The notes beneath the pieces are model-generated. The model saw only the letters and a list, made by a program, of their open reading frames with translations, had not been told where the DNA came from and searched no databases. 64,000 bases of DNA from Candidatus Magasanikiibacteriota bacterium (GTDB lineage Bacteria > Patescibacteriota > Patescibacteriia > Magasanikbacterales > GWA2-37-8): contig JBAYIZ010000003.1 in assembly GCA_041665405.1 (NCBI GenBank), positions 2,589-66,588 on the forward strand, written 5' to 3'. Both the position numbers and the translations under genes were made by a program. Below are positions 3,588 through 25,039 of the stretch, piece after piece. Each line of letters opens with the position of its first letter. The stretch's first letter is position 1.

Positions 3588-3609
3588 TATTCAATCATGG
3601 TTCTAATGT

Positions 3610-5218
<1,609 letters not shown>

Positions 5219-5697: not shown

Positions 5698-5731
5698 GAT
5701 TTACTCTTATTCTTTTGAATCACCAACAACT

Positions 5732-6316: not shown

Positions 6317-6394
6317 ATTAGTCTTGATGCATTTTATATAAAATATTGTTATTTTTTTTATAAAATGATATAATAAATAAGTAAAATATAAAAT

Positions 6395-6610: not shown

Positions 6611-6613
6611 TTT

Positions 6614-6982
6614 ATGATTGAAAACCAACCAGATATAACACTAGAACAGGCCATAAGAAAAACAAAAGATGCTGGGATAACCTTAAACTTCGACAAAGGT
6701 CAAACAGTTGCTGGTGATCTTTTTCAACTTCAACAAGATATTAGAAAAACCAACTCCACCATTGAACATATTAAATGGGTTTTTGGTGCCATTTTAATAG
6801 GTTCTGTTTTTGCAACTATAGTTTTACTTGCAGATTATGCAAATTTTGCAAGTACTGCATATATACAATTTAATCAAACAATAGAAGAACAAAATAAAGA
6901 TCACGAAACAGTTGAATCTATTAAAACTGATATTGAATTTATCAAAAATAATTTAAATAGTTTAAATTCAGGAAAAAAATAA
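6614..6982 (+). CDS. hypothetical membrane-anchored protein
   Basis: 122-aa ORF with one central TM helix (WVFGAILIGSVFATIVLLA). It starts 4 nt after the previous ORF. Confidence 0.35.
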   Translation: MIENQPDITLEQAIRKTKDAGITLNFDKGQTVAGDLFQLQQDIRKTNSTIEHIKWVFGAILIGSVFATIVLLADYANFASTAYIQFNQTIEEQNKDHETVESIKTDIEFIKNNLNSLNSGKK

Positions 6983-7004
6983 CAAAAAAAGATCAATAAA
7001 AATT

Positions 7005-7667: not shown

Positions 7668-7753
7668 TAATATAATCGCTTATTTAAGCGATTATTTTGT
7701 TTTGACGAAAGCAAATAAAGAGAGTAAAATATAGGAACTAAATTTCTTAAACT

Positions 7754-9205: not shown

Positions 9206-9208
9206 GAT

Positions 9209-10504: not shown

Positions 10505-10536
10505 TTGGCAGATACAATTTTTTAAAAGGAAATTAT

Positions 10537-11403
10537 ATGAGTAGAATTTTTGATTTTAATAAACGTTTTGGAAAAACTGTTGACCCTGAAGAAGTAAAAC
10601 ATGATTTTGTAAATAAAATTACTCATTATCTTATCGAACCTCTGGATGAGAAGGCAGGTTTACGTTATGGAGAGTACAGTAATAGTACTGAAATATTTAA
10701 TTTTGTGGCGATGGAATTTAATCAAAACCCGACAAATATTATATATTTACACAACAGAAATCATTTCTATTCTGATGATATTTACCGTCCATCTTTTAAG
10801 ATTTTTTCTGATGGCGTTTTTGAAAAAACCCTTATATTAGTAGAAATTTTTTATGATTATCTTTCAACGCACAGCATCCCTGGCACGGGTGAAAAGCAGT
10901 GGTCAGAAAATATAAATAAAATTGTCGCGTATGCTCTTAACCAGCCAGTATCGCTTGGCATCTCGTGGCGTGATGGAAAATTTTATCCTGAAGGAGCCGA
11001 AGAATTTGATGAAAAACTTATTTCGGATGTATTAAAATGGCTTGAACAAAAACCAAAAATTCAGGCTTTATACAAAAATGCACTTGATCAGTATTCTCAA
11101 TCATTAAGTGATAATATTAAGCGTAAAGATGTTATGAGTAATGCTTTTCAAGCTGTAGAACAACTTACCCAAGAATATCTGAAAAGCCCCAAACCGTCAT
11201 TTGATAATAATTTTAATTCATTAGTTGATAAACTTGTTATTGATAAAGAATGGAAAAAAATATTTAATTCTTACAAAGAATTAAGTAAAGAATTTGGGCG
11301 ACATGCAGGTAGTGGAGACAGCTTTATTCCTACACAAGAAGATACTGAAGCATTTTTATATTTGTCTGGTTTGATAATGAGATTAATACTTGAAAAAGTA
11401 TGA
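10537..11403 (+). CDS. hypothetical protein (no recognisable domain), embedded in the hsd operon
   Basis: 288-aa ORF with a good RBS (AAAGGA) 7 nt upstream. Its stop overlaps the hsdS start (ATGA), which implies translational coupling. Confidence 0.5.
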   Translation: MSRIFDFNKRFGKTVDPEEVKHDFVNKITHYLIEPLDEKAGLRYGEYSNSTEIFNFVAMEFNQNPTNIIYLHNRNHFYSDDIYRPSFKIFSDGVFEKTLILVEIFYDYLSTHSIPGTGEKQWSENINKIVAYALNQPVSLGISWRDGKFYPEGAEEFDEKLISDVLKWLEQKPKIQALYKNALDQYSQSLSDNIKRKDVMSNAFQAVEQLTQEYLKSPKPSFDNNFNSLVDKLVIDKEWKKIFNSYKELSKEFGRHAGSGDSFIPTQEDTEAFLYLSGLIMRLILEKV

Positions 11404-12620
11404 AAAATAATTGGCCAACAAAAAAACTTGGCGAAGTATGTGAATTTTTGAATGGATTATGGACTGGCAAAGAACCACCTTATATCAAAGTTGGTGTGAT
11501 TAGAAATACTAATTTTACAAAAGATGGGACACTAGACGATTCTAATATTGCTTACCTAAATGTTGAAAAAAAACAATTTGAAAAAAGAAAATTAATTTGC
11601 GGTGATGTCATCCTTGAAAAATCTGGCGGTGGACCAAAGCAACCTGTTGGGCGAGTTATAATATTTAATAAGGACAAAGGCAGTTTTTCATTTAGCAATT
11701 TTACTTCGGTAATAAGAATAAAGGATCCTAAAGAATTGAATTTTAATTTTCTCCATCGGTTTTTATTTTTTTCTTATATTTCAGGCATCACCGAAAAAAT
11801 GCAAAGTCATTCAACGGGAATTAGAAATCTTGATTCGAAATTATATAAAAATATCGATATACCTCTTCCATCACTCCATGAACAACACCACATCGTAAAA
11901 ATTTTAGATGAGGTTTTTGCGAAGGTGGCGAAGGCGAAAGAAGATGTTGAAAAAAATTTACAAAATTCCAAAGCACTTTTTGAATCATATTTACAGAGTG
12001 TTTTTACTAATCCAAGAAAGGATTGGGATGAGAAAAAATTAGGAGAAGTTTGCAATTTTGTAAGAGGACCATTTGGGGGGAGCTTAAGAAAAAGTATTTT
12101 TAAAAAAGAGGGTTACGTAGTTTATGAACAACAACATGCCATATATAATCAATTTTCAAAGGTAAGATATTTTATTGACGAAAATAAATTTAATGAAATG
12201 AAAAGATTTGAATTAAGGTCAGGTGATTTGATTATGAGTTGCTCTGGAACTATGGGTAAAATAGCAATTGCACCAGTGGGCATTAAAAAAGGAATTATTA
12301 ATCAAGCGTTATTAAAACTTAGTCCAAACAAAGATTTGATCAATGTGTTTTTGAAAAACTGGATGGAGAGCGCTGTTTTTCAAAATGATCTTAAAAAATA
12401 CACTAAAGGAGCTGCTATAAAAAATGTAGTATCCGTAAAGATTTTGAAAGGAATTAAAATATACATACCAAAATTGGCGGAACAAAAATTAATAATTTCC
12501 AAACTCGACGCCCTTTCCGCCGAGACCAAAAAACTAGAAGCAATTTATAATCAAAAATTAGCAAATTTAGAAGAATTAAAAAAGTCCGTATTAAAAAAGG
12601 CATTCGCAGGGGAGTTGTAA
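11400..12620 (+). CDS. hsdS: type I restriction-modification system specificity subunit S
   Basis: Two target-recognition-domain halves separated by conserved helical repeats (...LPSLHEQHHIVKILDEVF... and ...IPKLAEQKLIISKLDALS...), the classic HsdS architecture. Confidence 0.88.
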   Translation: MKNNWPTKKLGEVCEFLNGLWTGKEPPYIKVGVIRNTNFTKDGTLDDSNIAYLNVEKKQFEKRKLICGDVILEKSGGGPKQPVGRVIIFNKDKGSFSFSNFTSVIRIKDPKELNFNFLHRFLFFSYISGITEKMQSHSTGIRNLDSKLYKNIDIPLPSLHEQHHIVKILDEVFAKVAKAKEDVEKNLQNSKALFESYLQSVFTNPRKDWDEKKLGEVCNFVRGPFGGSLRKSIFKKEGYVVYEQQHAIYNQFSKVRYFIDENKFNEMKRFELRSGDLIMSCSGTMGKIAIAPVGIKKGIINQALLKLSPNKDLINVFLKNWMESAVFQNDLKKYTKGAAIKNVVSVKILKGIKIYIPKLAEQKLIISKLDALSAETKKLEAIYNQKLANLEELKKSVLKKAFAGEL

Positions 12621-12648
12621 TAAACAGCATATTTGATATAATACGACT

Positions 12649-13668
12649 ATGAAGTTTACTCGCACAAAAAAGGTGTTATTTACGAACAATAAAGGCGGAG
12701 TTGGCAAAACCACGCTGGCTTTTAATTGTGCCATGTCCTTTGCCAAACAAGGGTATAAAACTGTATTGGTTGATCTTGATCCTCAATGCAATCTTTCCCG
12801 ATTATCTTTAGGCGACAATCGATATGAAAAGACACTATTTTCATCACAGGAAAAAGATATTTATGATGTGTTGAAAGGCGTGATAGAGGGTGGGTCAGAT
12901 ATTGATTTAGGTGTGCCGTTTATTCCTGTATCCAACAGCAACAATAATCTTTTTTTAATGAAAGGTAGTGTTAATCTTTCGCTGTATGAAAATATATTAG
13001 TTACGGCCTACGGACAAGCCGCCGCTGGCCAGCAACTTGGCTATTTTCAAACTAGTGCGATTGATAGGTTCCTTCGAGAAAGAGGATTAAATGACGAGGT
13101 GGATATTTTTGTAATAGATACATCTCCTAGCTTGTCGCTACTCAATCAAATTATTTTCCTTGGTTCAGATTATTTTGTTGTTCCTATGATGCCCGATGCT
13201 TTTAGCGTGCAAGGTATTGAAAATCTTGGTAGCATATTTGAAAAATGGAAACAAAATTGGAAAGTAACCGGCAAAGCTCTTTCTGGTAATACAGAAAGTA
13301 AATTTGTGCTTTCAGGTGATGGTCTTTTTATTGGGTATATTGTGAATTCATATAATGTATATGGCAAACAGCCAATAAAAGATCACCGCCATTGGATTGA
13401 AGAAATTCCGGCTAAAGTTAAAAAATATCTTTCAGAAAAACATGGACGAAATGGGCTGGTTGAAAAAAGTTGGAAAAATCCGCTGGCTGAAATTCAGGAT
13501 TATGGTAGAATTCCTGCAAAGTGTCAAGAAATTGGGGTAGCGATATTTGATCTTGACCCAGCGTTGATTGATGAAATTCATCTTGGAACTATAGAAAACA
13601 TTGAAAAGTCAAAAGAGGAATTTGGAATATTGACGCAAAATATTTTAAAAATATTAATTGATTATTAA
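12649..13668 (+). CDS. ParA/MinD-family P-loop ATPase (deviant Walker A)
   Basis: KGGVGKTT deviant Walker A, DLDPQCN (A' motif), hhhhDTSPS Walker B. 339 aa with a ~90-aa C-terminal extension. Located between hsdS and hsdR. Confidence 0.75.
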   Translation: MKFTRTKKVLFTNNKGGVGKTTLAFNCAMSFAKQGYKTVLVDLDPQCNLSRLSLGDNRYEKTLFSSQEKDIYDVLKGVIEGGSDIDLGVPFIPVSNSNNNLFLMKGSVNLSLYENILVTAYGQAAAGQQLGYFQTSAIDRFLRERGLNDEVDIFVIDTSPSLSLLNQIIFLGSDYFVVPMMPDAFSVQGIENLGSIFEKWKQNWKVTGKALSGNTESKFVLSGDGLFIGYIVNSYNVYGKQPIKDHRHWIEEIPAKVKKYLSEKHGRNGLVEKSWKNPLAEIQDYGRIPAKCQEIGVAIFDLDPALIDEIHLGTIENIEKSKEEFGILTQNILKILIDY

Positions 13669-13715
13669 AAATAGACCGTTAGCCCTTAAGTTTTTATGGA
13701 GTTAGCGGTTTTTTA

Positions 13716-16070
13716 ATGTATATGCTTAACGAATCAGAAACACGAGCCGAATATATTGACCCGAAACTTAAAGCGAGTGGTTGGGGTGAAGTGGAGGGAT
13801 CCAAAGTCCTGCGTGAATTTCGTATTACCGACGGTAAAATTCAAGCTGGAGGAATGCGCGGTAAACCGGAAATTGCGGATTATATTTTGGTATATAAAAA
13901 TCGCAAAATTGGGGTGATTGAAGCTAAGGCGGAAAATTTAGCGGCGTCTGAGGGTGTAGGACAAGCCAAAGCGTACGCGCAAAAATTACAGATTGATTTT
14001 ACCTATGCCACCAACGGCAAAGATATTTATGAAATTTCCATGAAAAACGGACAAGAAGGAAATGTTGTAGATTTTCCAACTCCGGATGAATTGTGGGACA
14101 AAACTTTTTCTGACCAACCAGCCACAAACGAAGAATGGAAAGAAAAATTTGATGCGGTTTCGTCTGAAGGTGAAAAAGGTAAACGATATTATCAAGAGCT
14201 GGCTATCAACAATGCACTGGATGCGGTGGCACAAGAAAAGACACGAATACTAATAACTATGGCCACGGGGACAGGTAAGACTGCGGTGGCGGCTCAAATC
14301 GCTTGGAAACTATTTCAGACCCGCTGGAATTTAAAGAGAGATGGATCTCGCAGACCACGAATATTGTTTTTGGCGGATAGAAATATTTTGGCTGACCAAG
14401 CATTTGGAAATGATTTTTCAATTTTTCCAACCGATGCTATGGTGCGTATCAATCCTTTGGATATTCGAAAAAAGGGTGGTGTGCCAATGAGTGGTAGTGT
14501 TTATTTTACAATTTTTCAAACTTTTATGAGTGGAGCGGAAGGTGCTCCTTATTTTGGAGAATATCCACCAGATTTTTTTGATTTTATTATCATTGATGAG
14601 TGTCATCGTGGCGGTGCTAATGATGAAGGTAATTGGCGTGGTATTTTGGAATATTTTTCTCCTGCAGTCCAACTTGGTTTGACTGCGACACCAAAGCGAC
14701 AAGATAATGTGGATACATATAAATATTTTGGTGAACCAGTTTATGTTTATTCACTCAAAGAGGGTGTGAATGATGGCTTTTTGACTCCATTTAAAGTTAA
14801 ACGAGTCAAAACTACTCTTGATGATTATATTTACACTTCAGATGATCAAATTGTTGAAGGTGAAGTGGAAGAAGGAAAAATATATACTGAACCGGATTTT
14901 AATAAAATAATTGAGATCAAGGCCAGAGAGGCAAAAAGAGTGAGAGTGGTATTAGATGAAATAAATCAAAATGAAAAGACAATAATATTTTGCGCGACCC
15001 AGGACCACGCGGCGGCCGTGCGTGATTTGGTAAATCAAATGAAAGATAATAAGGATCCGAATTATTGTGTGAGAGTGACTGCCAATGACGGATTTCGTGG
15101 TGAACAATTTTTGCGTGAATTTCAAGATAATGAAAAAACTATACCGACTATTTTGACCACTTCACAAAAACTTTCTACTGGCGTAGACGCGCGCAATATT
15201 CGCAATATTGTTTTGATGAGACCGGTAAATTCAATGATTGAATTTAAACAAATTATCGGTCGTGGTACTCGACTTTTTGATGGTAAAGAATATTTTACGA
15301 TTTATGATTTTGTGGATGCGTACCATCACTTTGCCGATCCTGAATGGGATGGGGAACCAGCAAGTGAAACAACAGAAGATCAACCAACGGTTAAATATGA
15401 AACCACGAACAAGGATTTTGGCGGATCTATTTTGCGAGAAAAACCGACTGAAAAATATAAAAAATTAAAAATAAAATTACGTGATGGAAAAGAACGAGAA
15501 ATACAGCATATGATTTCAACTTCTTTTTGGAGTGCTGACGGCAAACCAGTTTCTGTTCAAGAATTTATGGACAATATGTTTGGTACCATGCCAGAATTTT
15601 TTAAGAGCGAAGAAGAACTCCGGAAAATTTGGTCAAACCCAACCACACGAAAAGTATTTTTAGAAAAAATTGCTGAGGCTGGTTATGGAAAAGACGAACT
15701 GGAAACATTACAAAAATTGATTGACGCTGAACAGAGTGATTTGTTTGATGTGCTTGCCTATGTATCCTTTGCTAGCAAGCCAATTAGCAGAACGGAGAGG
15801 GTTGACACTACTAAAAAAATTATTTTAAAAGGATTGGATGAAAAACAAACAGAATTTTTGCAATTTGTTTTAAATAAATATATTGATAATGGAGTAGAAG
15901 AGCTAGACGAAGAAAAATTGCCACAATTATTGAATTTAAAATATTACGCTATTGCAAATGCTGAACAGGAACTAGGCGATGTGTTTAAGATTAGAAATTT
16001 ATTTATTGATTTTCAAAAAGGTCTCTACAGTAATAAAATAAAAAATAATATTACTATTCAAAAAAATTAA
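13716..16070 (+). CDS. hsdR: type I restriction enzyme endonuclease/helicase subunit R (EcoEI-like, short form)
   Basis: N-terminal HSDR_N-like MLNESETRAEYIDPKLKASGWG. SF2 helicase motifs MATGTGKT (I), DECHRG (II), LGLTATP (III). The C-terminal region resembles the EcoEI_R_C domain. Confidence 0.88.
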   Translation: MYMLNESETRAEYIDPKLKASGWGEVEGSKVLREFRITDGKIQAGGMRGKPEIADYILVYKNRKIGVIEAKAENLAASEGVGQAKAYAQKLQIDFTYATNGKDIYEISMKNGQEGNVVDFPTPDELWDKTFSDQPATNEEWKEKFDAVSSEGEKGKRYYQELAINNALDAVAQEKTRILITMATGTGKTAVAAQIAWKLFQTRWNLKRDGSRRPRILFLADRNILADQAFGNDFSIFPTDAMVRINPLDIRKKGGVPMSGSVYFTIFQTFMSGAEGAPYFGEYPPDFFDFIIIDECHRGGANDEGNWRGILEYFSPAVQLGLTATPKRQDNVDTYKYFGEPVYVYSLKEGVNDGFLTPFKVKRVKTTLDDYIYTSDDQIVEGEVEEGKIYTEPDFNKIIEIKAREAKRVRVVLDEINQNEKTIIFCATQDHAAAVRDLVNQMKDNKDPNYCVRVTANDGFRGEQFLREFQDNEKTIPTILTTSQKLSTGVDARNIRNIVLMRPVNSMIEFKQIIGRGTRLFDGKEYFTIYDFVDAYHHFADPEWDGEPASETTEDQPTVKYETTNKDFGGSILREKPTEKYKKLKIKLRDGKEREIQHMISTSFWSADGKPVSVQEFMDNMFGTMPEFFKSEEELRKIWSNPTTRKVFLEKIAEAGYGKDELETLQKLIDAEQSDLFDVLAYVSFASKPISRTERVDTTKKIILKGLDEKQTEFLQFVLNKYIDNGVEELDEEKLPQLLNLKYYAIANAEQELGDVFKIRNLFIDFQKGLYSNKIKNNITIQKN

Positions 16071-16074
16071 TAAT

Positions 16075-16980
16075 ATGCCATTATTTAAAAATACCGATTC
16101 GAAACTATCCATAATAAAAGAAAGGCCGATTGATTTAGAGAGGGATATTCAACATCTCACTGAAATTAATTTAGAAAATGTTTTTAACCTAGAATTTGTT
16201 AGTTCTGAATTTTCTTTACACAATTTCAGACTTGACACACTAGCTTTTGACAAGGAGACAGGTTCTTTTGTAATAATAGAATTTAAAAGAGATAGAAGCT
16301 TCAGTGTTATTGATCAAGGGTATGCCTATTTATCTTTAATGTTAAACAACAAGTCAGATTTTATTTTGGAATACAATGAAAAAACAAAAAAGAATTTAAG
16401 ACGTGATGATGTTGACTGGTCACAGTCCAGAGTAATGTTTGTAGCAAATTCATTTACTTCATATCAAATGAATGCAATAAATTTTAAAGATCTACCCATT
16501 GAATTGTGGGAAGTTAAAGTTTATGAAAACAATGTAATATTATTTAATCAACTCTTATCACAAGACTCTACTGAATCAATAAAAACTATCACAAAAAACA
16601 AAGCTATCGATTCAGTGAGTAACGAAGTAAAAGTCTATACATTAGAAGACCATTTGAATGTGAACGATAAAATAAAAGAATTATTTTATGCGCTAAGAGA
16701 AAAAATACTAGCGCTTAGTGATACAATCGAAGAAAGACCTAAAAAAATGTACGTTGCATACAGAGTTAGAAATACATTTGCGTATGTTCATATACAACAA
16801 TCGCAAATCAAGATCCACTTAACTATTGATATGAAAAAACTGGTTGATCCAAAGGGTTTTGTTAGGGATGTAAATAATATTGGCCATTTTGGTGGTGGTG
16901 ATTTAGAGGTGATTTTAGACAAAATGGAAAATCTAAATTATGTTTTTGATTTAATTGAACAATCTTATAAAGCATTATAA
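16075..16980 (+). CDS. predicted PD-(D/E)xK (RecB-like) nuclease-domain protein
   Basis: Starts 4 nt after the hsdR stop. The N-terminus carries ...LDTLAFDKETGSFVIIEFKRD... (D..D..hIEFK) and DQGYAYL (QxxxY). The C-terminal ~130 aa are an unassigned domain. Confidence 0.4.
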   Translation: MPLFKNTDSKLSIIKERPIDLERDIQHLTEINLENVFNLEFVSSEFSLHNFRLDTLAFDKETGSFVIIEFKRDRSFSVIDQGYAYLSLMLNNKSDFILEYNEKTKKNLRRDDVDWSQSRVMFVANSFTSYQMNAINFKDLPIELWEVKVYENNVILFNQLLSQDSTESIKTITKNKAIDSVSNEVKVYTLEDHLNVNDKIKELFYALREKILALSDTIEERPKKMYVAYRVRNTFAYVHIQQSQIKIHLTIDMKKLVDPKGFVRDVNNIGHFGGGDLEVILDKMENLNYVFDLIEQSYKAL

Positions 16981-17034
16981 ATCAAAAAACATACAAATCA
17001 TTACAATTAGTGAACATCATAATAAAACATACTT

Positions 17035-17391
17035 ATGATAAAACTTACCCCAGAAGAGAAAAAAATTATAATAGACAAAGGGACAGAACCACCTTTTATC
17101 GGAGAATACGTCAATAACAAAGAAACCGGTGTTTATATCTGCCGACAGTGCGAAGCCCCACTATATAATTCCAAAGACAAATTTGAGTCTAATTGTGGTT
17201 GGCCGTCATTTGATGATGAGATACCTGGATCAGTAAATAAAACTTTGGACGCTGACGGTGTGCGAACGGAAATAACTTGTGCCAATTGTGGAGGTCATCT
17301 GGGGCACTTGTTCATTGGTGAAAAATTAACAGAAAAAAATAAAAGGTATTGTGTAAATTCGATATCAATGAAATTCATACCTGGAAAATGA
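17035..17391 (+). CDS. msrB: peptide-methionine (R)-S-oxide reductase
   Basis: Two CxxC zinc knuckles ([18 protein letters not shown]), CGWPSF and the catalytic RYCVNS motif. Confidence 0.9.
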
Positions 17392-17423
17392 AGTGCAGAT
17401 TGAGGTGAAAGTAAAATAAATAT

Positions 17424-17765
17424 ATGCGCGTTTGGGATATACATCCAAAACACCTATGCCGAAAACATTTGCTTGCAGAACATCGTGAACTTCATGGGCT
17501 TTGGAATATTTTAACTATACACAAAGGAAAGGGTGGGTATTCACGGCATCCGGAAACACTTCGCTGGGTGGGAAAACAAAAAGCTCTCTATGATAGACAC
17601 GAGGCGCTGGTAAAAGAGTTTTTGGTTCGCGGATATAAACACCACACACCGCTTGATAAACGTTTAGCCAAAGGTTCAGGCAGCCAGAGTGTATTTATAA
17701 ACACTATGCGTGAGCAAAAAGTTATTTTAAAACAAAAACCGTGCGAATGTTTGCTGCATGGATGA
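17424..17765 (+). CDS. pyrimidine dimer DNA glycosylase (T4 endonuclease V/DenV-like, Pyr_excise family)
   Basis: N-terminal MRVWDIHPKHLCRKHLLAEHRELHG aligns with T4 endoV [28 protein letters not shown] (catalytic N-terminus plus the E-R-E-L core). Size is 113 aa. Confidence 0.7.
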   Translation: MRVWDIHPKHLCRKHLLAEHRELHGLWNILTIHKGKGGYSRHPETLRWVGKQKALYDRHEALVKEFLVRGYKHHTPLDKRLAKGSGSQSVFINTMREQKVILKQKPCECLLHG

Positions 17766-17823
17766 TGACATTTGTACCTGTATTTAATATGTTCACTTTA
17801 TCCACACACAATGTTTGATTTTT

Positions 17824-17846
17824 ATACACTAATAGTGTATACTAAA
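17824..17846 (+). promoter_or_regulatory. palindromic operator ATACACTA-a-TAGTGTAT overlapping a GTATACTAA motif, immediately upstream of the HTH-Panacea gene
   Basis: Read directly: 8-bp perfect arms ending 6 nt before the ATG at 17852. Confidence 0.55.
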
Positions 17847-17851
17847 CACAT

Positions 17852-18526
17852 ATGAATAAAAACTACCAAACCGCCATAAAACAACTACGATTAGAAAAAA
17901 ATATATCGCAATCTGACATTGCGCAAAAGATGGGTATTTCGCGCACCTCATATATTTCTTTTGAACAAGGTAAGCGCGACATCAGTCTATCCGAAGCGGG
18001 TGTTTTGGCCGATATATTTGGCATCTCCTTGGAAGATCTCAAAAATGGCGTAACACCGAATAATGAAAAATACAAACAAATGATTTTGGCTTTTTTGCGT
18101 TTGGATACCAAGATCACAAAGACCAAACTTGCTAAATTATTGTATTTTGCCGATTTTGGGTGGTTTTATTCTCACCTTGAAAGTATGAGCGGCATGTCAT
18201 ACCGTAAAATGGCGTATGGTCCAGTTTCAGATGCTTATTTTAGGATAGTTGACGATTTGTTTGACAACGGTCAAATTGATATTGAGCAAACCAAAGATGG
18301 GGCAATGTTAGTTTCTCAGACGCGCAGTGGCGCAAAAATTGATTTATCTGCTCTCAATACTGAAGAAAAAAAGTTAATATCCACTATTGAAAAAAAATGG
18401 AAAGGCAAAAAAACTTCTGAGATAGTTGATTTTACCCACAAGCAATTTCCATATTTATATGCTCAAGACAACGAAATTGTGTCATATGGTTTGTTTACCC
18501 AAGAAAATCCTGACGAAATTTTCTAA
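17852..18526 (+). CDS. XRE-family HTH fused to a Panacea (DUF4065/SocA-like) domain protein; putative antitoxin/regulator
   Basis: N-terminal HTH (QSDIAQKMGISRTSYISFEQGKRDISLSEAGVLADIFGISLEDL). The C-terminal KTKLAKLLYFADFGWFYSHLESMSGMSYRKMAYGPV matches the DUF4065 core (KLqKLLYfad...GPV). A palindromic operator lies immediately upstream. Confidence 0.7.
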   Translation: MNKNYQTAIKQLRLEKNISQSDIAQKMGISRTSYISFEQGKRDISLSEAGVLADIFGISLEDLKNGVTPNNEKYKQMILAFLRLDTKITKTKLAKLLYFADFGWFYSHLESMSGMSYRKMAYGPVSDAYFRIVDDLFDNGQIDIEQTKDGAMLVSQTRSGAKIDLSALNTEEKKLISTIEKKWKGKKTSEIVDFTHKQFPYLYAQDNEIVSYGLFTQENPDEIF

Positions 18527-18584
18527 TTATGATATACAAAAATGATAAGATATATTTTATATAATAATTTTAATTTAATTATAT

Positions 18585-19538
18585 ATGGAGGGGAAAAACA
18601 ATCAAATTATCATATACAATACTAAGGACGGCAAGACCAAGATTGAAGTTAAGCTAAATGACGAAACTGTATGGCTCACCCAGGCGCAAATGGCTGATTT
18701 GTTTCAGAAGAGCCAATCTACAATAAATGAACATATCCAAAATGTTTATGATGAGGGTGAATTGGAAAAAGAGCTAACCTTGCGTAAATTCGGAAATTCC
18801 GAAAATAGCATAGCTAAGCCAACCAACATTTATAATCTGGATGTGATCATCTCCGTTGGCTATCGTGTTAATTCCCTTCGAGGCACCCAATTCCGCATTT
18901 GGGCAACACAAAAATTGAAAGAATACATTATAAAAGGTTTTGTATTGGACGATGAGCGATTAGAAAGCGGACAGGTAGCCAAACCATACTTTCAGGAATT
19001 AGAAGAACGCATTCGCAAGATTCGCACTTCTGAAGCAAATTTCTATCAAAAGGTAAAAGATGTTTTTGCTTTAAGCGCGGATTACAATCCGAAGGCAGAT
19101 TATGCTCAGAAATTTTTCGCAGTAGTACAAAATAAATTTCACTTTGCTATTACCGGATTAACCGCAGCCGAAATTGTTAGCAGTCGCATAGACAGTGCCA
19201 AAGAAAATTTAGGGCTGACAAATTGGAAGGGTGAAATTATTACTCGTGATCAAGCGGAAGTCGCAAAAAATTATTTACAAGAACTAGAATTAAAAAGATT
19301 AAATTTACTGGTGGAACAATTTCTTTCTTTTGCTGAATTACAAAGTGTGGAACAGCGCGTCATGTATATGAATGATTGGATTATGAAACTGGATGGATTT
19401 TTGGTTTTGAATGATAAAGAAATTTTGGAAAATTCTGGCAGTGTGTCGCGCCATGACATGGAACAAAAGGTGCGCGAGGAATTAAAGAGATATAATCAGA
19501 AGGTTTTGGAAAATAAAAAACCCAATCAATTAGATTAG
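18585..19538 (+). CDS. RhuM-family protein (Virulence_RhuM, PF13310-like)
   Basis: N-terminus IIIYNTKDGKTKIEVKLNDETVWLTQAQMADLFQKSQSTINEHIQNVYDEGEL is the highly conserved RhuM-family opening. It lies 58 bp downstream of the Panacea gene on the same strand. Confidence 0.7.
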   Translation: MEGKNNQIIIYNTKDGKTKIEVKLNDETVWLTQAQMADLFQKSQSTINEHIQNVYDEGELEKELTLRKFGNSENSIAKPTNIYNLDVIISVGYRVNSLRGTQFRIWATQKLKEYIIKGFVLDDERLESGQVAKPYFQELEERIRKIRTSEANFYQKVKDVFALSADYNPKADYAQKFFAVVQNKFHFAITGLTAAEIVSSRIDSAKENLGLTNWKGEIITRDQAEVAKNYLQELELKRLNLLVEQFLSFAELQSVEQRVMYMNDWIMKLDGFLVLNDKEILENSGSVSRHDMEQKVREELKRYNQKVLENKKPNQLD

Positions 19539-19821
19539 GCATTTTATTGAAGTAGTGTCTTAGAAAATGGTTATCTGCGGCTTAAGTTCCAGGTACCCTG
19601 GAGGAACACCACGGCACTCTCTAAGTTATTATTACTAACTTCACTTATAATATAGACAATAAAGTGATCATTGTCAATATTTATCCACAGACTATGTCAA
19701 CTAACCGGAATTTCCGGATAACTGAATTAACTAAAATTTTACCTTAAAATATAGCTTGTTATATTCCATAATTATAAGAATATTTTGGCTAATATATAAC
19801 TAATAAAGCCACTCTAACAAT

Positions 19822-19860
19822 TAGTATACTCATGAGGTATACTAATTACAAGTATACTAA
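19822..19860 (+). promoter_or_regulatory. three direct copies of (A/G)GTATACTAATTA, each containing the GTATAC palindrome, immediately upstream of the DUF2779 gene
   Basis: ttAGTATACTcatgagGTATACTAATTAcaaGTATACTAATTatg read directly. TAGTATACTA is a perfect 10-bp palindrome. Confidence 0.55.
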
Positions 19861-19862
19861 TT

Positions 19863-21347
19863 ATGCACATCACCAAAACCGACTACCTCGAATACACCTT
19901 CTGCAAAAAGAACCTCTGGCTCAAAAAACACAAACCAGAGCTTTTTGATGGTGTCGAATTATCGGAATTTGAAAAGAAAATAATCGAAGAGGGGAACATG
20001 GCCGATGAATCAGCCCGCCATTTGTTTCCTGGTGGTGTGTTGGTAGATAGTTTTGGAGAGGATGCCGTGCATGACACCGCCCAATACCTGGAGAAAAAAA
20101 CAGCGGTGATATTTCAAGCGACCTTTGCGCAAGATGTTTTTTATATTCGCGCGGATATTTTGGTTTATGATCAATCCCAAGATGGCTATGAGCTGTATGA
20201 GGTGAAGGCCAGCAATGATGTCAAAAGAAAAGAGCCACATCATTATATCAACGACCTAGCTTTTCAAAAAAGTGTGATTGAAAAAAGTGGTTTGAAAATT
20301 ATTAAAACTGGCGTGATTCATTTGAACAGTGAATACCAAAGAGCGGGGGAAATTGATTATGAAAAATTATTTGTGATAGTGGATCTCAGTGATGAAGTGT
20401 TGGCCTCGCAAGAAAAAGTGCAAGCCCAGATGGAGGATATTAAAAAATATTTAAACATGCCGGAAGAAAAAGGGTGTGAATGTTTGTATCGCGGAAGAAA
20501 TGCTCAATGTACTACCTTTGCTTATTCCAACCCAGAGGTGCCAGAATATTCGGTGCATGATATCAATCGGATTGGGGCGAGTAAAAAAATACTTAATGAT
20601 TGGATAGATAGAGGGATATATGCGATTGAAGATATAGACAATCCACAGGTGCTCACTGGGGCCAAGAAGGCGCAATATGATGCGTGCTCGCTAGGCAAAC
20701 CGATGATTGATGAGGTGGCGATAAAAGAGGCGCTGGACAAATTGGTTTGGCCTTTGTATTTTTTTGATTATGAAGGATTTGTAAGTGCGATTCCGATGTT
20801 TGATGGTTTTGGGGCGTATGAACAAATTCCTTTTCAATATTCTCTGCATATTATGCAAGCGGATGGGAGTATAGAACATAGGGAATTTTTGATTACCGAT
20901 CCCAAAGGAGATCTCACCCGACCGCTGGTGGAACGGATGAAACAGGATATTGATCCGCGCGGGACGGTGATCGCGTGGTATAGCACTTATGAAAAACAAC
21001 GCAATTTGAAATTGGCACAGTTGCATCCGGACTATGCGAAATTTTTGGAGGAAATAAATGAGGGGATGTTTGATCTGATGACTATTTTTTCGGAAAATCT
21101 TTATGTGGATTCGGCTTTCAAGGGGAGCGCGAGTATCAAAAGGGTGTTGCCGGTGATTGTGCCGGAGCTAAGTTATAAAAATTTAAATATTTCCAAAGGG
21201 GATCAGGCGAGTGAGCGGTGGGAGCGGATGATTGGCAGTGATACGCCGGCGGAGGAGAAGAGACAGATTGAGAAGGATTTGTTGGAGTATTGTAAGATGG
21301 ATACTTGGGCGATGGTGAGGATATGGGAGAGGTTGAGGAAAATATAA
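19863..21347 (+). CDS. DUF2779-family protein with Cas4/RecB-like PD-(D/E)xK nuclease N-terminal domain
   Basis: N-terminal ITKTDYLEYTFCKKNLWLKKHKPELF matches the DUF2779 opening (lSKS.f..g.qC.k.lWl). ...ADILVYDQSQDGYELYEVK... carries a D...ELYEVK (ExK) motif. Three GTATACT repeats lie upstream. Confidence 0.55.
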   Translation: MHITKTDYLEYTFCKKNLWLKKHKPELFDGVELSEFEKKIIEEGNMADESARHLFPGGVLVDSFGEDAVHDTAQYLEKKTAVIFQATFAQDVFYIRADILVYDQSQDGYELYEVKASNDVKRKEPHHYINDLAFQKSVIEKSGLKIIKTGVIHLNSEYQRAGEIDYEKLFVIVDLSDEVLASQEKVQAQMEDIKKYLNMPEEKGCECLYRGRNAQCTTFAYSNPEVPEYSVHDINRIGASKKILNDWIDRGIYAIEDIDNPQVLTGAKKAQYDACSLGKPMIDEVAIKEALDKLVWPLYFFDYEGFVSAIPMFDGFGAYEQIPFQYSLHIMQADGSIEHREFLITDPKGDLTRPLVERMKQDIDPRGTVIAWYSTYEKQRNLKLAQLHPDYAKFLEEINEGMFDLMTIFSENLYVDSAFKGSASIKRVLPVIVPELSYKNLNISKGDQASERWERMIGSDTPAEEKRQIEKDLLEYCKMDTWAMVRIWERLRKI

Positions 21348-21413
21348 AATAATAATTTTAAACCCATCTAATTCGATGGGTTTAAAAAGGGGCCGAATTC
21401 GACCCCTTTAAAA

Positions 21414-21450
21414 CCGACCATTGAGTCGGTTTTTTATTTTTGGTATAATA
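21414..21450 (+). promoter_or_regulatory. repeated terminator-hairpin + extended -10 promoter module, copy 1 (CCGACcattgaGTCGG-T6-ATTTTTGGTATAATA)
   Basis: Read directly. Two further hairpins (AAACCCATCtaattcGATGGGTTT; AGGGGCCgaattcGACCCCTTT) precede it after the DUF2779 gene. Confidence 0.6.
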
Positions 21451-21471
21451 TCCATTATTAAATATTTAATT

Positions 21472-22074
21472 ATGAACAAGGGGGAAATAAATATATTTTT
21501 AAAATACTTTGAAGATAAAAAACAAAGGACTATTGTAATAGTTGATTATGGGAATGTTGAAAAATGGAAACATTCACTAAGTTGGGATGTGGGTATTAGA
21601 GAATTAGCAAATTTAATAAAAAATTTTTCCGGCAAAGAATTTTTACGAAGATTTTATTATGGTGCGGATTATGGTAAAGAAGAAAAATCTAAAATATTAA
21701 CCTACTGGTCTAAAAAAGTTTTAGAAACCGCACACTTCAACAGATTCGATGTCCAACATAAAAGAGTAAAATATATACACGACCAAAACAACAAACATGG
21801 GTTTGCTAAAAAGTGTGATTTGGATGTCGAAATGGCGGTTGATTTAATTAAAGAAAGAGATAATTACGATACTATAATTATATTTTCTGGCGATGGTGAT
21901 TTAATGTACGCTATACGATATTTGGTAGAAAAATATAAAAAAAGATGTTATGTTTTTGGTGCACGCGACCATATTGGAAGAGAAGTATATGATGCAAAAA
22001 CTGATTGTTGCGTAACAGAAGTATTATATGTCGAAGATTTTGAATATCGCCTAAGCTCAACTAGATTTAAATAA
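21472..22074 (+). CDS. NYN-domain (LabA-like) predicted ribonuclease
   Basis: IVIVDYGNVEKW (VDgeN-like N-terminal acidic motif) and IIIFSGDGDLMYAIRYL...YVFGA (SGDGDf motif) are typical of PF01936. Start is taken at the ATG for MNKGEINIF; the upstream TTG is part of a repeated promoter module. Confidence 0.6.
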   Translation: MNKGEINIFLKYFEDKKQRTIVIVDYGNVEKWKHSLSWDVGIRELANLIKNFSGKEFLRRFYYGADYGKEEKSKILTYWSKKVLETAHFNRFDVQHKRVKYIHDQNNKHGFAKKCDLDVEMAVDLIKERDNYDTIIIFSGDGDLMYAIRYLVEKYKKRCYVFGARDHIGREVYDAKTDCCVTEVLYVEDFEYRLSSTRFK

Positions 22075-22240
22075 TAAGATACCAAAAATCAGAAACCCGC
22101 CTTTAGGGCGGGGATTCGATCAAAATACGGTAAGCCTATGGATTGCTCCACAACTTACATAGATATAATACATAATTTTGACTAATTCGTCAAGTTATCC
22201 ACAGGGAATAATATATTAGAAAATATTCATATATTAAAAT

Positions 22241-22278
22241 CGGCTATTGAGCCGGTTTTTTATTTTTGGTATAATACT
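22241..22278 (+). promoter_or_regulatory. repeated hairpin + extended -10 module, copy 2 (CGGCTattgAGCCGG-T6-ATTTTTGGTATAATA), upstream of tspO
   Basis: Read directly. The T-run and the TGGTATAAT are identical to copy 1. Confidence 0.6.
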
Positions 22279-22299
22279 TACATATTTAAAAAAATAATT

Positions 22300-22776
22300 A
22301 TGAAAATAAATAACCCATCCAAACTTATCGTCGCCATTATCGTTTCCGAACTTGCCGGCATCATCGGTTCGGTGTTCACAACTCCATCCATTGCCGGCTG
22401 GTACTCAGAAATTGTAAAACCAACTCTAAATCCGCCCGCATGGGTCTTTGGACCAGTTTGGACAACATTGTTTGCTCTCATGGGTATTTCGGCATTCTTG
22501 ATTTGGAAGAAAGGGCTGAATCGCAAGGATGTTAAAATAGCTCTCGGTATATTTTTTGGTCAACTTATTTTAAACACGCTTTGGTCAATTATTTTTTTCG
22601 GTCTACACAGTCCAGGTGGTGCGTTGATTGAGATTATTTTCCTCTGGCTTGCCATTCTTGCCACGATTATCTTTTTTGCAAAAATCTCCAAACCGGCTGC
22701 TTGGCTTCTTTTGCCGTATATTCTTTGGGTAAGTTTTGCGATGTATTTAAATTACGCTATTTGGGTATTGAATTAA
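22300..22776 (+). CDS. tspO: TspO/MBR family tryptophan-rich sensory protein
   Basis: Five TM helices with the conserved W-rich pattern ...GWYSEIVKPTLNPPAWVFGPVWTTLFALMGISAFLIW.... Size is 158 aa. Confidence 0.85.
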   Translation: MKINNPSKLIVAIIVSELAGIIGSVFTTPSIAGWYSEIVKPTLNPPAWVFGPVWTTLFALMGISAFLIWKKGLNRKDVKIALGIFFGQLILNTLWSIIFFGLHSPGGALIEIIFLWLAILATIIFFAKISKPAAWLLLPYILWVSFAMYLNYAIWVLN

Positions 22777-22807
22777 AATCGGAGCTTAATACGAATTATT
22801 TAAATTT

Positions 22808-23413
22808 ATGAAAACAAGAATCTGTATATTTGGAGCAAGTACAACCTGGGGTATGCGAGATAACGAAGGTGGTGGATGGGTTGGGCGACTACGAAAATAT
22901 TTTGAAACTAATAATTATGATACTCGGGTTTATAATTTGGGTATTCCTGGGGATACTACTACTGACCTACTAAAAAGATTTGAAGTTGAATGCGAAGCTA
23001 GAAAACCTGATGTGATAATTTTTGGAATAGGAGCAAATGATGCATGCTATATTAATACTGAAAAAAACATGATGACCTCATTGAGACAATTTAACAAAAA
23101 TTTTTCAAAGCTAATTAAAAAAGCAAAAAAGATTACAAATAAAATCATATTGGTAGGGCTAACAAAAGTGGAAGAAATCAAATCTATGCCCATTCTCTTA
23201 AACAAGCAAAAATTTTGTTCAAATGCAAATATAATTAAATATGATTTGGCTATAAATGAAGCAGGCAAAATACATAGCGTGCCATTCATATCTTTGATTG
23301 ATTTATTAACTCCAAAGGATTTGAGCGATGATGGTCGTCATCCAAATTCAAAAGGGCATGAAAAAATGTTTTTGAAAATAAAGGATTATTTACTGGTTAA
23401 TAAAATTGTATAA
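22808..23413 (+). CDS. SGNH/GDSL-family hydrolase (lipase/acylesterase-like)
   Basis: Block I ICIFGASTTWG (catalytic Ser), block III GIGANDA, block V DDGRHPN (Asp/His). Confidence 0.75.
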   Translation: MKTRICIFGASTTWGMRDNEGGGWVGRLRKYFETNNYDTRVYNLGIPGDTTTDLLKRFEVECEARKPDVIIFGIGANDACYINTEKNMMTSLRQFNKNFSKLIKKAKKITNKIILVGLTKVEEIKSMPILLNKQKFCSNANIIKYDLAINEAGKIHSVPFISLIDLLTPKDLSDDGRHPNSKGHEKMFLKIKDYLLVNKIV

Positions 23414-23477
23414 AAAAAGAGTTTGAAAACAAACAAAAAACACGCCAAAATTATTAGCGTGTTTTATTTATTCTTCA

Positions 23478-23538
23478 AGATCGCTCTCGTTTTTATCACA
23501 AATATATTATGATAAAAACGAGTTGGAGCGATCTTGAG
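23478..23538. repeat. long inverted repeat (~25-bp arms) forming a strong hairpin at the low-GC/high-GC junction
   Basis: TCAAGATCGCTCtCGTTTTTATCA...TGATAAAAACGAGttgGAGCGATCTTGA read directly. It lies directly 3' of the minus-strand cupin gene. Confidence 0.7.
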
Positions 23539-23570
23539 ACCGAACCTTCCCGTCCTCGATGAGGGTCGGC

Positions 23571-23936
23571 CTACAGATGGGTGGCCGGGAAGTTCTTCTG
23601 GTCCTCGAAGGTGACGGGCATGTAGCCCACCAAGATCATACCAGCCGAACAGGCGAGAACATGCTCCTCGCCAGGCTCGAACATGAACATGGTCGGAGCC
23701 ATGATGACATGGTCCCACACGCCTCCGTTCTCGGTCCACGTGCGCACCCTGCAGCGCCCCTTGACCAGGAAGAACCCCTCGACATGGGCATGCGAGTGGT
23801 TGCCCAACCTCACGCCTTTGGACTTGGTGATGAGTACCTTGCTCTCCACCGGCTTGGGGAAATAAGGTGGCGGACGAAAAGCCGTCAAATCCCGCCGGGA
23901 ATCACTGTGGCTGTCCGCCACGAGAAAAATCTGCAT
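23571..23936 (-). CDS. cupin-fold WxcM/FdtA-like (sugar 3,4-ketoisomerase-like) domain protein encoded on a ~60% GC segment
   Basis: 121 aa. ...LGNHSHAHVEGFFLVKGRCRV... parallels FdtA RGFHAHKKLEQVLVCLNGSCRV. The downstream ...PGEEHVLACSAGMILVGYMPVTFED parallels ...WHEM..FS.D.V.MVLAS.YYDE. GC content of 23540-23940 is far above the surrounding ~30%. The plus-frame ORF 23559..24692 is an antisense artefact of GC-rich DNA. Confidence 0.5.
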   Translation of the reverse strand: MQIFLVADSHSDSRRDLTAFRPPPYFPKPVESKVLITKSKGVRLGNHSHAHVEGFFLVKGRCRVRTWTENGGVWDHVIMAPTMFMFEPGEEHVLACSAGMILVGYMPVTFEDQKNFPATHL

Positions 23937-24028
23937 GATTTAGTTTGTCCTCCCATCTTTGGTCGCATGATTGCGACTATTCTTTTTATCAAAAAACTGG
24001 GTTTCTGTCAAGAATACGAAATAATCAA

Positions 24029-24066
24029 CCGACCATTGAGTCGGTTTTTTATTTTTGGTATAATAT
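24029..24066 (+). promoter_or_regulatory. repeated hairpin + extended -10 module, copy 3, upstream of the DUF3800 gene
   Basis: CCGACCATTGAGTCGGTTTTTTATTTTTGGTATAATA, identical to copy 1 over 36 nt. Confidence 0.6.
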
Positions 24067-24071
24067 ACCTT

Positions 24072-24692
24072 ATGAATATATATTTAGACGAATCATACAA
24101 TTTACAAAAATCTAAAGGTAAAATGTTTATTAGTATCAATGGTTTTTCTGTTCTAAATGCCGAACGGTTGAGAAAACGCTGGAAACATATTCGACAACCA
24201 TATACAAAACACAAGCGTCGTATTCATGCAACAGATCCTTTCTTTGAAGGTTTGCGAAGTAAAAGTATTCCACTACTAAAGGCAAATGATATAATGATAA
24301 TATCTGTATTTCAAATTGTACAGGAAATTCCTTACGATTATTTTGATAATAATAAAATGAATTTTGAAGTTGTTTATGCTGAATTACTAAAACAACTATT
24401 AAAAGAACTTTCGCTTAACGAATACAAACAAACTAAAATTATAATCGACTCTCGCAAACACAAAGGGGGGATTGCTGGAGCAACCAATTTTCAACAAGAA
24501 ATTAATAATTTTTTGAAAAATAAATTTCCAGGTACTGTATGTTCATTTTTACCTACACCTTCATATTTAGATGTACTTGTTGAATTGGCTGATTTCGTTT
24601 CTAATACTTTTTATAAAAACTACCAAAAAGGAGATGACACTATATTTAAACAGCTCGGATATCGACTTATACAAATAAAAAACCCGCTATAA
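24072..24692 (+). CDS. DUF3800-family protein
   Basis: Starts MNIYLDESYNL..., matching the DUF3800 N-terminal IYIDESG-type motif. The ATG sits 7 nt after a repeated TGGTATAATA promoter module. 206 aa. Confidence 0.5.
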   Translation: MNIYLDESYNLQKSKGKMFISINGFSVLNAERLRKRWKHIRQPYTKHKRRIHATDPFFEGLRSKSIPLLKANDIMIISVFQIVQEIPYDYFDNNKMNFEVVYAELLKQLLKELSLNEYKQTKIIIDSRKHKGGIAGATNFQQEINNFLKNKFPGTVCSFLPTPSYLDVLVELADFVSNTFYKNYQKGDDTIFKQLGYRLIQIKNPL

Positions 24693-24855
24693 AAGCGGAT
24701 TTAGTAAGAGCCTTTTGGGAGTGTCTCTGCTTCATCGGGATGTTCTTGATGAGAACGCCCTCCACAAAGCTTTACCCTAAGGACTTATCTTCTGAAGATA
24801 TTATCACACAAAAAGGTTGTTTTGTCAATGTGTGTGGATAACTAACATGCAATAA

Positions 24856-24890
24856 AATCGGCTATTGAGCCGGTTTTTTTTATCTGCTAT
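24856..24890 (+). promoter_or_regulatory. repeated hairpin + -10 module, copy 4 (CGGCTATTGAGCCGG-T8-ATCTGCTATACT), upstream of the Cys-rich peptide
   Basis: Hairpin identical to copy 2; the -10 is diverged to TATACT. Confidence 0.5.
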
Positions 24891-24898
24891 ACTATGGA

Positions 24899-25039
24899 TA
24901 TATGGCTAAATGTGTAAATTGCGGGAAACCGCTAGAACACGAGGACGACAGCTGTTTGTGCAATACCAGCGTTTGTCCAACTTGCTGTGACTGCCATAAA
25001 GAATGTGGTTGTAATTGCAAGGAACGCACCGAAAAGTAA
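24899..25039 (+). CDS. small cysteine-rich peptide (46 aa, 11 Cys; zinc-ribbon/metallothionein-like)
   Basis: Read directly as MAKCVNCGKPLEHEDDSCLCNNTSVCPTCCDCHKECGCNCKERTEK. Below the ORF-track size cut-off. It lies immediately downstream of the fourth copy of the hairpin/-10 module. Confidence 0.45.
   Translation, partial: YMAKCVNCGKPLEHEDDSCLCNTSVCPTCCDCHKECGCNCKERTEK

Follow-up and report, generated by a model that had tools for sequence, protein, structure and literature searches.

How does a gene rich in guanine and cytosine (GC) come to stand alone in the chromosome of an AT-rich bacterium? The question is raised by a 64,000-nucleotide stretch of DNA (hereafter the window) from contig JBAYIZ010000003.1 of assembly GCA_041665405.1, a Candidatus Magasanikbacteria metagenome-assembled genome (MAG), in which an island of about 400 bp encodes a small protein of the cupin superfamily. 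The genomes of Patescibacteria, the phylum concerned, are tiny and streamlined, and little is understood of how new genes are acquired. The answer that we consider probable is a real cassette, self-contained and with a single gene, that arrived horizontally, is similar to the morons of phages and is lodged in a variable region of the chromosome. It stands at a chromosomal hotspot and belongs to a set of mini-cassettes that are rich in GC at third codon positions (GC3) and carry a common bulged hairpin. Read in this way, the locus would provide a base-pair-level example of a single-gene expression unit moving among members of the phylum of very different GC content, with filled, empty and alternatively filled versions of one site all in hand.

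Base composition of the island

The segment from 23538 to 23940 is ~60% GC, in a contig of 36% GC. Counted per 100 nt, GC is 0.23-0.33 at 23350-23549, 0.58-0.64 at 23550-23899, then 0.38 and, by 23950-24149, 0.20-0.29. Counted per 300 nt, the island peaks at 0.607 against a mean of 0.36 over the 64 kb (standard deviation 0.05; z = 4.9), and is unique there, as every other 300-nt stretch stays at or below 0.51. The abrupt shift near 23540 and back near 23940 that the first-pass annotation reported from the letters alone is thus reproduced at both scales. The GC excess is concentrated at third codon positions. GC at codon positions 1/2/3 of the cupin open reading frame (ORF) is 0.56/0.41/0.80, and the comparison of codon usage that had been suggested for the gene sets its GC3 of 0.80 well apart from the 0.309 +/- 0.058 (maximum 0.46) of the 56 other window ORFs of at least 110 amino acids.

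The unit consists of the following elements, each with the evidence by which it was called.

23571 to 23936, minus strand: cupin gene of 121 codons (ORF, homologues, ratio of nonsynonymous to synonymous substitution rates (dN/dS), invariant residues, AlphaFold model, fold matches)
23983 to 24011, minus strand: predicted promoter, with a -35 element TTGACA at 24011-24006, a 17-nt spacer and an extended -10 element TGaTAAAAA at 23991-23983 (read from the sequence)
23962 to 23977, minus strand: stem-loop GTCGCA-AUCA-UGCGAC in the 5' untranslated region (UTR), near the predicted transcript start (fold)
23949 to 23953, minus strand: Shine-Dalgarno sequence GGAGG, 12 nt upstream of the ATG (read from the sequence)
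23538 to 23570, minus strand: 33-nt GC-rich spacer after the stop codon, with a small stem-loop (fold)
23475 to 23537, minus strand: long bulged hairpin with a 12-bp lower stem, a 4-nt 5' bulge (CAAC), a 15-bp upper stem and a 5-nt loop (fold, conservation)
23437 to 23465, no strand assigned: intrinsic terminator hairpin with T-runs on both strands (terminator scan and fold of the 3' UTR)

The cupin gene and its product

A cupin gene of 121 amino acids on the minus strand had been proposed at the outset, and it stands: the ORF at 23571-23936 exists, its dN/dS is low, its product is predicted to adopt a cupin fold, and the protein is 100% identical to that of NCBI locus tag WCV83_01275. Homologues are scarce. 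Among 5.8 billion protein clusters just 15 were found, matching along their full length with 61-69% identity, and when 1.84 billion representatives were searched exhaustively with a profile, 21 family members were returned. Their source names are Magasanikbacteria, Falkowbacteria and Saccharibacteria, and the family appears to be tiny and restricted to Patescibacteria. The ORF is under purifying selection, with a pairwise dN/dS of 0.09-0.21 and a conserved length. In AT-rich versions the protein is kept while nucleotide identity falls to 57-64%, so that the ORF, and not an RNA, is the conserved entity.

Residues H47, H49, H51, E53, H92, C62, C96 and W67, among others, are invariant in the 15-sequence alignment. 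Cupin motif 1, G(X)5HXH(X)3-4E(X)6G, is present as G41-VRLGN-H47-S-H49-AHV-E53-GFFLVK-G60, and its H47, H49, E53 and G60 are invariant across all 15. The region of motif 2, G(X)5PXG(X)2H(X)3N, reads P88-G89-EE-H92-VLA-C96; its histidine is invariant, whereas neither the spacing of P-X-G nor the asparagine at the end of the motif is kept. The AlphaFold model has ten strands and a predicted local distance difference test score (pLDDT) of 89.2, and both the model and its PDB fold matches display the double-stranded beta-helix barrel. Foldseek returned 249 PDB matches at E <= 0.001. The best 50 are almost all cupins, and include oxalate decarboxylase (OxdC), Mn-hydroxynitrile lyase, KdgF, DddK, TM1459 and the best structural neighbour, the C-terminal cupin domain of CapF (TM-score 0.73-0.77, E about 5e-6).

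Sequence profiles say less. On the window protein, Pfam Cupin_2, Ectoine_synth and Cupin_7 remain below gathering (15-17 bits vs 27), and Cupin_2 is matched by 13/15 members, weakly, with a best E-value of 3.6e-4. A PDB sequence search with the family profile gave no match, and PADLOC and PHROGs searches with the cupin and the other cargo proteins gave nothing significant. Small cupins exist in phages too, according to BFVD, which shows no more than that. As modelled, the protein has the fold of metal-binding cupins in general, with the C-terminal domain of CapF as the nearest match, and it would function as a small His/Glu metal cupin enzyme. We infer a His3-Glu metal-dependent enzyme acting on a small molecule, possibly a sugar-nucleotide epimerase or isomerase. 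The family is thus known in kind, as cupins, yet uncharacterised.

The first-pass annotation had been more specific, likening the protein to the FdtA/WxcM sugar 3,4-ketoisomerases. This likeness is not borne out: Pfam FdtA (PF05523) matches none of the 15 members at E <= 0.1, and the best 50 PDB fold matches include no FdtA, QdtA or WxcM entry. No dTDP-sugar aminotransferase or acetyltransferase gene stands beside the cupin gene, whose neighbours in the window are GDSL, TspO, NYN and DUF3800 genes. Two homologues, at the related loci L004 and L007, do lie in glycan-synthesis neighbourhoods; most others lie elsewhere.

On the plus strand, an ORF of 377 amino acids (23559-24692) joins the cupin gene, read in antisense, with the DUF3800 gene next to it, and the gene caller used on the ENA contig chose this fusion, thereby hiding the cupin. 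The long antisense ORF had rightly been taken for a by-product; it merges cupin antisense with the DUF3800 gene. As a practical point, gene callers mis-annotate the locus as this fusion.

Signals that accompany the gene

The promoter-like layout TTGAC(A/G/T)-N14/15-TGnTAtaaa recurs at 11 loci in different hosts. Hairpins equivalent to the 5' stem-loop, with stems that have changed and yet remain paired, are found in L010 (CCGT/ACGG), L016 (CCGCA/TGCGG), L004, L002 and L007, as well as in L141B, a cassette without a cupin. GGAGG or GAGG stands at the matching position in other loci. The spacers after the stop codon in L010 and L016 cannot be aligned with that of the window, yet they too are GC-rich with small stems.

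The long hairpin folds at -40.3 kcal/mol, compared with -17.3 +/- 3.0 for shuffled sequences (z = -7.8; 0/200 shuffles as good), and the three elements of the 3' region jointly reach -67.8 kcal/mol (z = -10.9). A covariance model of the long hairpin finds one copy in the 64 kb. The terminator at 23437-23465 is predicted to serve both the cupin transcript on the minus strand and the convergent GDSL gene on the plus strand. A hairpin at the 3' end of the gene had been seen from the start, and is indeed there, 33 nt past the stop codon and followed by that terminator. It had also been described as an inverted repeat bounding the island. The repeat is real, at 23475-23537, but it does not lie on both sides: it is a single hairpin, and with both arms on the 3' side a reading as terminal inverted repeats is rejected. 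A repeated element of the repetitive extragenic palindromic (REP) or miniature inverted-repeat transposable element (MITE) type is likewise rejected for a hairpin that is single-copy in the window. Rfam searches at gathering thresholds (window), at permissive E-values (23300-24200) and over seven related loci assigned neither the island nor the hairpin nor the leaders to a family, DUF3800-V being the only one found elsewhere in the window, and a scan for transfer and transfer-messenger RNAs found none.

The promoter-like, 5' stem-loop, ribosome-binding and terminator signals are conserved and travel with the cupin gene. In the mechanism that we propose, transcription from its own promoter would yield a short mRNA with the 5' stem-loop as its cap and three hairpins closing its 3' end. 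It is in this RNA that the long hairpin would have its effect, either in protecting the 3' end or as a processing site for a double-strand RNase.

The chromosomal site in related genomes

By uvrD, the relative nearest to the window is L139/L140 (full-length identity 83%, 86.7% at the N-terminus), which comes from the ENA assembly that also contains the window's contig. The site is empty in L139: atpC, one terminator and promoter unit, a Cys-rich ORF and uvrD follow in direct succession. A region of ~18 kb in the window (~5700-24000) is missing there, and the cupin cassette stands at its right-hand edge, next to a boundary marker.

24027 to 24064, plus strand: boundary marker outside the cassette, the old atpC terminator hairpin and TGGTATAAT promoter unit, now driving DUF3800 (scan, homology to L139)

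Since this segment is homologous to the sole intergenic unit between atpC and the Cys-rich ORF of L139, the stretch of ~5.7-24.0 kb is an inserted variable region. It is a ~18 kb defence island, inserted between atpC and the operon of the Cys-rich ORF and uvrD. Its defence-type genes are RadC, HsdM, HsdS, ParA-like, HsdR, DUF5655, RhuM, DUF2779/Cas4-like and NYN, and its type I restriction-modification system has a gene with a Shedu SduA_C domain between hsdM and hsdS. The TspO and GDSL genes also lie inside.

In other relatives the site is filled. The next relative, L141/L142 (81% uvrD identity), has two different GC-rich genes here, with GC3 of 0.60 and 0.66. One of these cassettes has a similar promoter and the 5' hairpin GGCGCAATTCATGCGTGG, and its long hairpin, although diverged, is of like architecture (13 bp, CAA bulge, 16 bp; z = -9.1). 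L010, from Logan assembly SRR22388252, is the outgroup to the window, L139 and L141 by uvrD. It has a GC-rich cupin gene with the same hairpin and terminator, a unit that adjoins the 45-aa Cys-rich ORF and a uvrD whose N-terminus is 77.7% identical to the window's. L016, from an SRP286056 co-assembly, likewise has a GC-rich cupin gene and hairpin beside the Cys-rich ORF. The labels 'uncultured Gammaproteobacteria' attached to L015 and L016 were rejected, as L016 is syntenic with the window and an RpoC fragment of L015 matches Patescibacteria.

Several observations on these sites stand apart. In L016, positions 600-760 hold an N-gap, then a second, ~85% identical cupin 3' end with hairpin, probably two alleles merged by co-assembly. 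In L141, upstream of the two GC-rich cassettes (3520-3705), a promoter-like site is followed ~150 nt on by a strong terminator with no ORF between, which may be a small RNA gene. The 45-aa ORF of the window (24902-25039, plus strand) has 12 cysteines (MAKCVNCGKPLEHEDDSCLCNTSVCPTCCDCHKECGCNCKERTEK) and no PHROGs family match; its place immediately before uvrD is conserved in the window, L010, L139 and L141, and in L016 it lies beside the cupin gene. The DUF3800 gene (24072-24692) is bracketed by a direct repeat with a ~45-nt unit (24022-24064 and 24853-24897), composed of the terminator hairpin AAYCGRCYATTGAGYCGGTTTTTT and a TGnTATAaT promoter. Given that this unit occurs once in the empty-site L139 and twice in the window, DUF3800 looks like a second inserted single-gene cassette. 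Finally, 4.4 kb from the DUF3800 gene, a DUF3800-V motif of Rfam (19548-19643, minus strand; 70.2 bits, gathering 37.4) lies between the RhuM-family and DUF2779/Cas4-like genes.

The hairpin and its other cargo

A 17-mer of the hairpin occurs in 118 metagenome contigs, eight of which, representing five distinct loci, hold the whole hairpin. At these loci the DNA immediately 5' is a GC-rich island of 300-450 bp in contigs of 32-41% GC. The cargo varies among them, with two unrelated small membrane proteins and others, and has a GC3 of 0.67-0.93. At least four other small genes of high GC3 are followed by the 27-bp bulged hairpin, in which compensatory changes have occurred; for non-cupin cargo overall, GC3 is 0.60-0.93 in contigs of 35-41% GC. 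GC islands in the related loci are confined to these cassettes. A common hairpin behind unrelated GC3-rich small genes points to a shared vehicle or to shared control at the level of RNA.

The hairpin of L010 is ~90% identical to the window's, its cupin ORF just 73%. In a seven-locus alignment, pairing in the 11-bp lower helix is 100% and is kept through three double compensatory and three G-U changes; the upper helix hardly varies, which is partly an effect of ascertainment. In 7/7 aligned loci the long hairpin leads into a spacer and then a terminator whose stem covaries. Slightly better pairing on the sense strand and the placement inside the transcription unit mildly favour an RNA role. 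Different cargo occupies one locus in L065 on the one hand and L066 and L081 on the other, between a conserved leader and a conserved hairpin, and L056 and L081, from one metagenome, have a near-identical 3' region while cargo and neighbours differ. The hairpin is absent from the cupin cassettes of other lineages at the level of phyla (L002, L004, L008, L012 and L019), where ordinary terminators take its place. The hairpin-linked set appears to be undescribed in Rfam and in the literature searched.

Two side observations concern related cassettes. The membrane-protein cassettes of L065 (reverse complement), L066 (9740-10110) and L081 (4030-4280) share a promoter and the leader start TATACTnATT..ATAAATAACcTAAATTGGCAAgTCG, and L065 and L081 have a ~200-nt conserved leader in common despite differing ORFs; it has no Rfam match and may be a structured leader RNA. 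In L012, another low-GC context, and also in L013, an AT-rich imperfect inverted repeat of ~60 nt (459-519 and 1031-1095) has a 511-bp cupin cassette exactly between its arms, so placed perhaps by insertion into a palindrome, unless the arms are paired terminal repeats.

Origin, age and alternative explanations

In most genomes the GC3 of the cupin gene tracks that of the host, at 0.30-0.39 in hosts of 33-35% GC (L004, L002, L008) and 0.85-0.89 in the patescibacterial hosts of 62-65% GC, L011 and L015 (the latter a Patescibacterium by its RpoC fragment). In five low-GC contexts, the window included, the gene stands out as a GC island. Horizontal gene transfer in Patescibacteria takes place mostly within the phylum (PMC12455944), and with GC-rich hosts available there, a GC-rich patescibacterial donor is plausible; in the proposed mechanism it would be the source of the cassette. 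The horizontal origin from a high-GC donor that the first-pass annotation had offered is therefore still the best reading, the family being native in the contigs L011 and L015. As to the donor itself, family members are found in contigs of 62-65% GC, and no donor closer than 73% nucleotide identity is known. The further claim, that the import is very recent and unameliorated, is not established, as the syntenic copies are saturated at fourfold sites with GC3 at 0.70-0.80.

Several points weigh against horizontal transfer of a cassette as we describe it. With no known donor closer than 73%, the transfer can be neither dated nor traced. Fourfold sites have reached saturation among the copies of the window, L010 and L016, which still have a GC3 of 0.70-0.80; among 43 fourfold sites compared between L010 and L016, 16 are identical, 17 are G<->C, 10 strong/weak and 0 A<->T differences. 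A single old import followed by neutral decay towards 31% GC3 misfits these data, which call instead for repeated imports from diverged GC-rich sources to the same site, or for GC maintained in place, an age inference made from small site numbers and a family tree that does not resolve. Furthermore, no recombinase, transposase or phage gene is adjacent to the cassette, and the one tyrosine recombinase of the window, of Xer-like type, lies at a distance of 18 kb (41871-42824). Neither the cupin gene nor the hairpin turns up in viral contigs or in the records of phages and plasmids: no match came from tblastn searches of plasmid and phage (INPHARED) records or from the cupin profile in IMG/VR, hairpin patterns were found in no IMG/VR viral contig, and three 17-mer matches there are due to chance. 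The hairpin and the promoter are AT-rich parts inside a GC-rich unit. The strand asymmetry of the hairpin is modest, with ~96.7% of cells pairing on the sense vs ~94% on the antisense strand, and the promoter and RNA roles are predictions from conserved consensus alone. We nevertheless rank horizontal cassette transfer first, and leave repeated import and maintained GC as two readings. A neighbour-joining tree of the family was also tried, but is star-like and does not separate vertical from horizontal history.

Maintained GC is at the heart of an alternative that we regard as rather unlikely, namely a resident gene that entered once in the ancestor of the window, L010 and L016 lineages, descended vertically, was lost in L139 and replaced in L141, and in which selection, not recency, keeps the coding sequence and 3' spacer GC-rich, perhaps because a stable or structured mRNA or a certain decoding rate is of use in an AT-rich host. 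In its favour, the three genomes agree in the position and orientation of the unit and in its hairpin and terminator. The cupin gene (proportions of synonymous and nonsynonymous differences, pS 0.56 and pN 0.19) has diverged to a similar degree as the flanking uvrD (pS 0.64, pN 0.14), and the persistence of high GC3 at saturated sites fits as well. So do the five different hairpin-linked cargo genes, all GC3-rich, and the post-stop spacers, which are non-coding and cannot be aligned, yet are all GC-rich. However, the host-like GC3 of L002, L004 and L008 implies that the protein does not need GC-rich codons. Loss or replacement is required in the two closest relatives because L010 is the outgroup by uvrD, monophyly of the trio is without support in the star-like tree, and no mechanism is known.

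A broader form of the cassette reading may be put forward only tentatively: AT-rich Patescibacteria would carry undescribed, exchangeable mini-cassettes that are swapped at fixed hotspots, with the hairpin as landing site or RNA element. Such a mini-cassette may consist of a GC3-rich small gene with its own promoter, the ~63-nt bulged hairpin and a terminator, and its cargo may include the cupin, small membrane proteins and an acidic 65-aa protein. As an RNA element, the hairpin may, jointly with GC-rich coding, give the transcript a special fate.

It is more doubtful still that the hairpin directs the exchange as DNA, as a folded single-strand recombination or landing site in the manner of integron attC or CTX-phage attP, through which single-gene cassettes rich in GC would repeatedly enter fixed sites or replace one another there. 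The hairpin and terminator behind at least five unrelated cargo genes would be accounted for, as would the cargo swap of L065 vs L066/L081, the shared 3' region of L056 and L081 and the three saturated cupin copies at one site; the one-sided CAAC-like bulge is kept even in the diverged L141 hairpin. On the other side, the vicinity contains no integrase or HUH/Y1 transposase, reading of the sequence found no attC core sites (RYYYAAC/GTTRRRY), and the cassettes have their own promoters and do not form arrays. The hairpin lies inside the transcription unit, before the terminator, which suits an RNA role, and the hairpin-free cupin cassettes listed above do without it.

An assembly or binning chimera, in which a GC-rich fragment of another organism was spliced into the contig, had also been raised in the first-pass annotation and is very unlikely. 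The composition does change abruptly within some 400 bp, the MAG was built from a short-read metagenome, and its two assembly records may share reads. Against this, an ENA contig of 132,309 bp matches the window at 100% identity for 10.9 kb, a stretch that takes in the island (the NCBI contig has 72,970 bp), two chimeric junctions would be needed inside one contig of 72-132 kb, and these would fall at a conserved promoter and a conserved hairpin, which is non-random. Orthologous GC-rich cupin and hairpin units occupy the same position in the independent assemblies L010 and L016, both from other samples; further cupin GC islands are found in L012, L013 and L014, three separate assemblies of another such island, and in the Saccharibacteria contig L019.

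A structured non-coding RNA gene with an incidental ORF, suggested by GC-rich islands in AT-rich genomes often being RNA genes and by the stable hairpins in the flanks, is highly improbable, given the GC excess at third codon positions, a dN/dS of 0.1-0.2 with conserved ORF length, the protein kept in AT-rich versions at 57-64% nucleotide identity, the lack of an Rfam match and the confident cupin fold; for the ORF region it is refuted by the codon-level pattern.

Comparison with known systems

CapF catalyses the C3-epimerisation step of UDP-L-FucNAc synthesis (PMC3699295), and the C-terminal domain of the Staphylococcus aureus protein shares with the window cupin the canonical motif 1 at G41-G60 and the beta-barrel. 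However, identity is just 15-20%, motif 2 of the window protein is deviant (PGEEH...C), there is no attached SDR domain, and the neighbourhoods are mostly unrelated to glycans. With the FdtA/WxcM ketoisomerases the protein shares the barrel of the cupin superfamily and a similar size.

Among mobile units, the phage moron offers one parallel. Morons are independent transcription units between conserved genes, for instance HK97 gene 15 (Cumby et al. 2012, PMC3594210), with their own promoter, their own terminator and deviant GC (PMC3594210). Similarly, the cupin unit is a single gene with its own predicted promoter and terminator, has a GC content unlike its neighbours and is absent from the closest relative, L139. 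In contrast to morons, it is not in a phage or prophage, having no nearby phage genes and no PHROG, IMG/VR or INPHARED match. It sits in a chromosomal defence island, and the 3' hairpin common to cassettes of different cargo is not a feature of morons.

Integron cassettes offer a second parallel, as small single-ORF units of foreign composition with an imperfect hairpin, bulged on one side, just 3' of the ORF, and with cargo that varies at a fixed chromosomal position. Here, however, neither of the R''/R' core motifs RYYYAAC/GTTRRRY stands in the conserved positions of the aligned hairpins, no IntI integrase is encoded in the 64 kb, and the cupin unit has its own predicted promoter and stands as a single unit (two in L141), not in a tandem array. 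The cassette hairpin, unlike attC, is ~90% conserved in sequence and is followed by a terminator. If the hairpin should prove to be a recombination site, this would be a new cassette system.

At the level of RNA, comparison may be made with lambda sib-type hairpins, which act in 3'-UTR stabilisation or RNase III retroregulation, and with REP-type elements: the cassette hairpin likewise has a long near-perfect stem between stop codon and terminator and is conserved across different genes. The cassette hairpin differs from REP elements in being single-copy in the 64 kb, and from both in its tie to GC-rich cargo. If it is indeed an RNA element, it would constitute a new 3'-UTR motif specific to this group.

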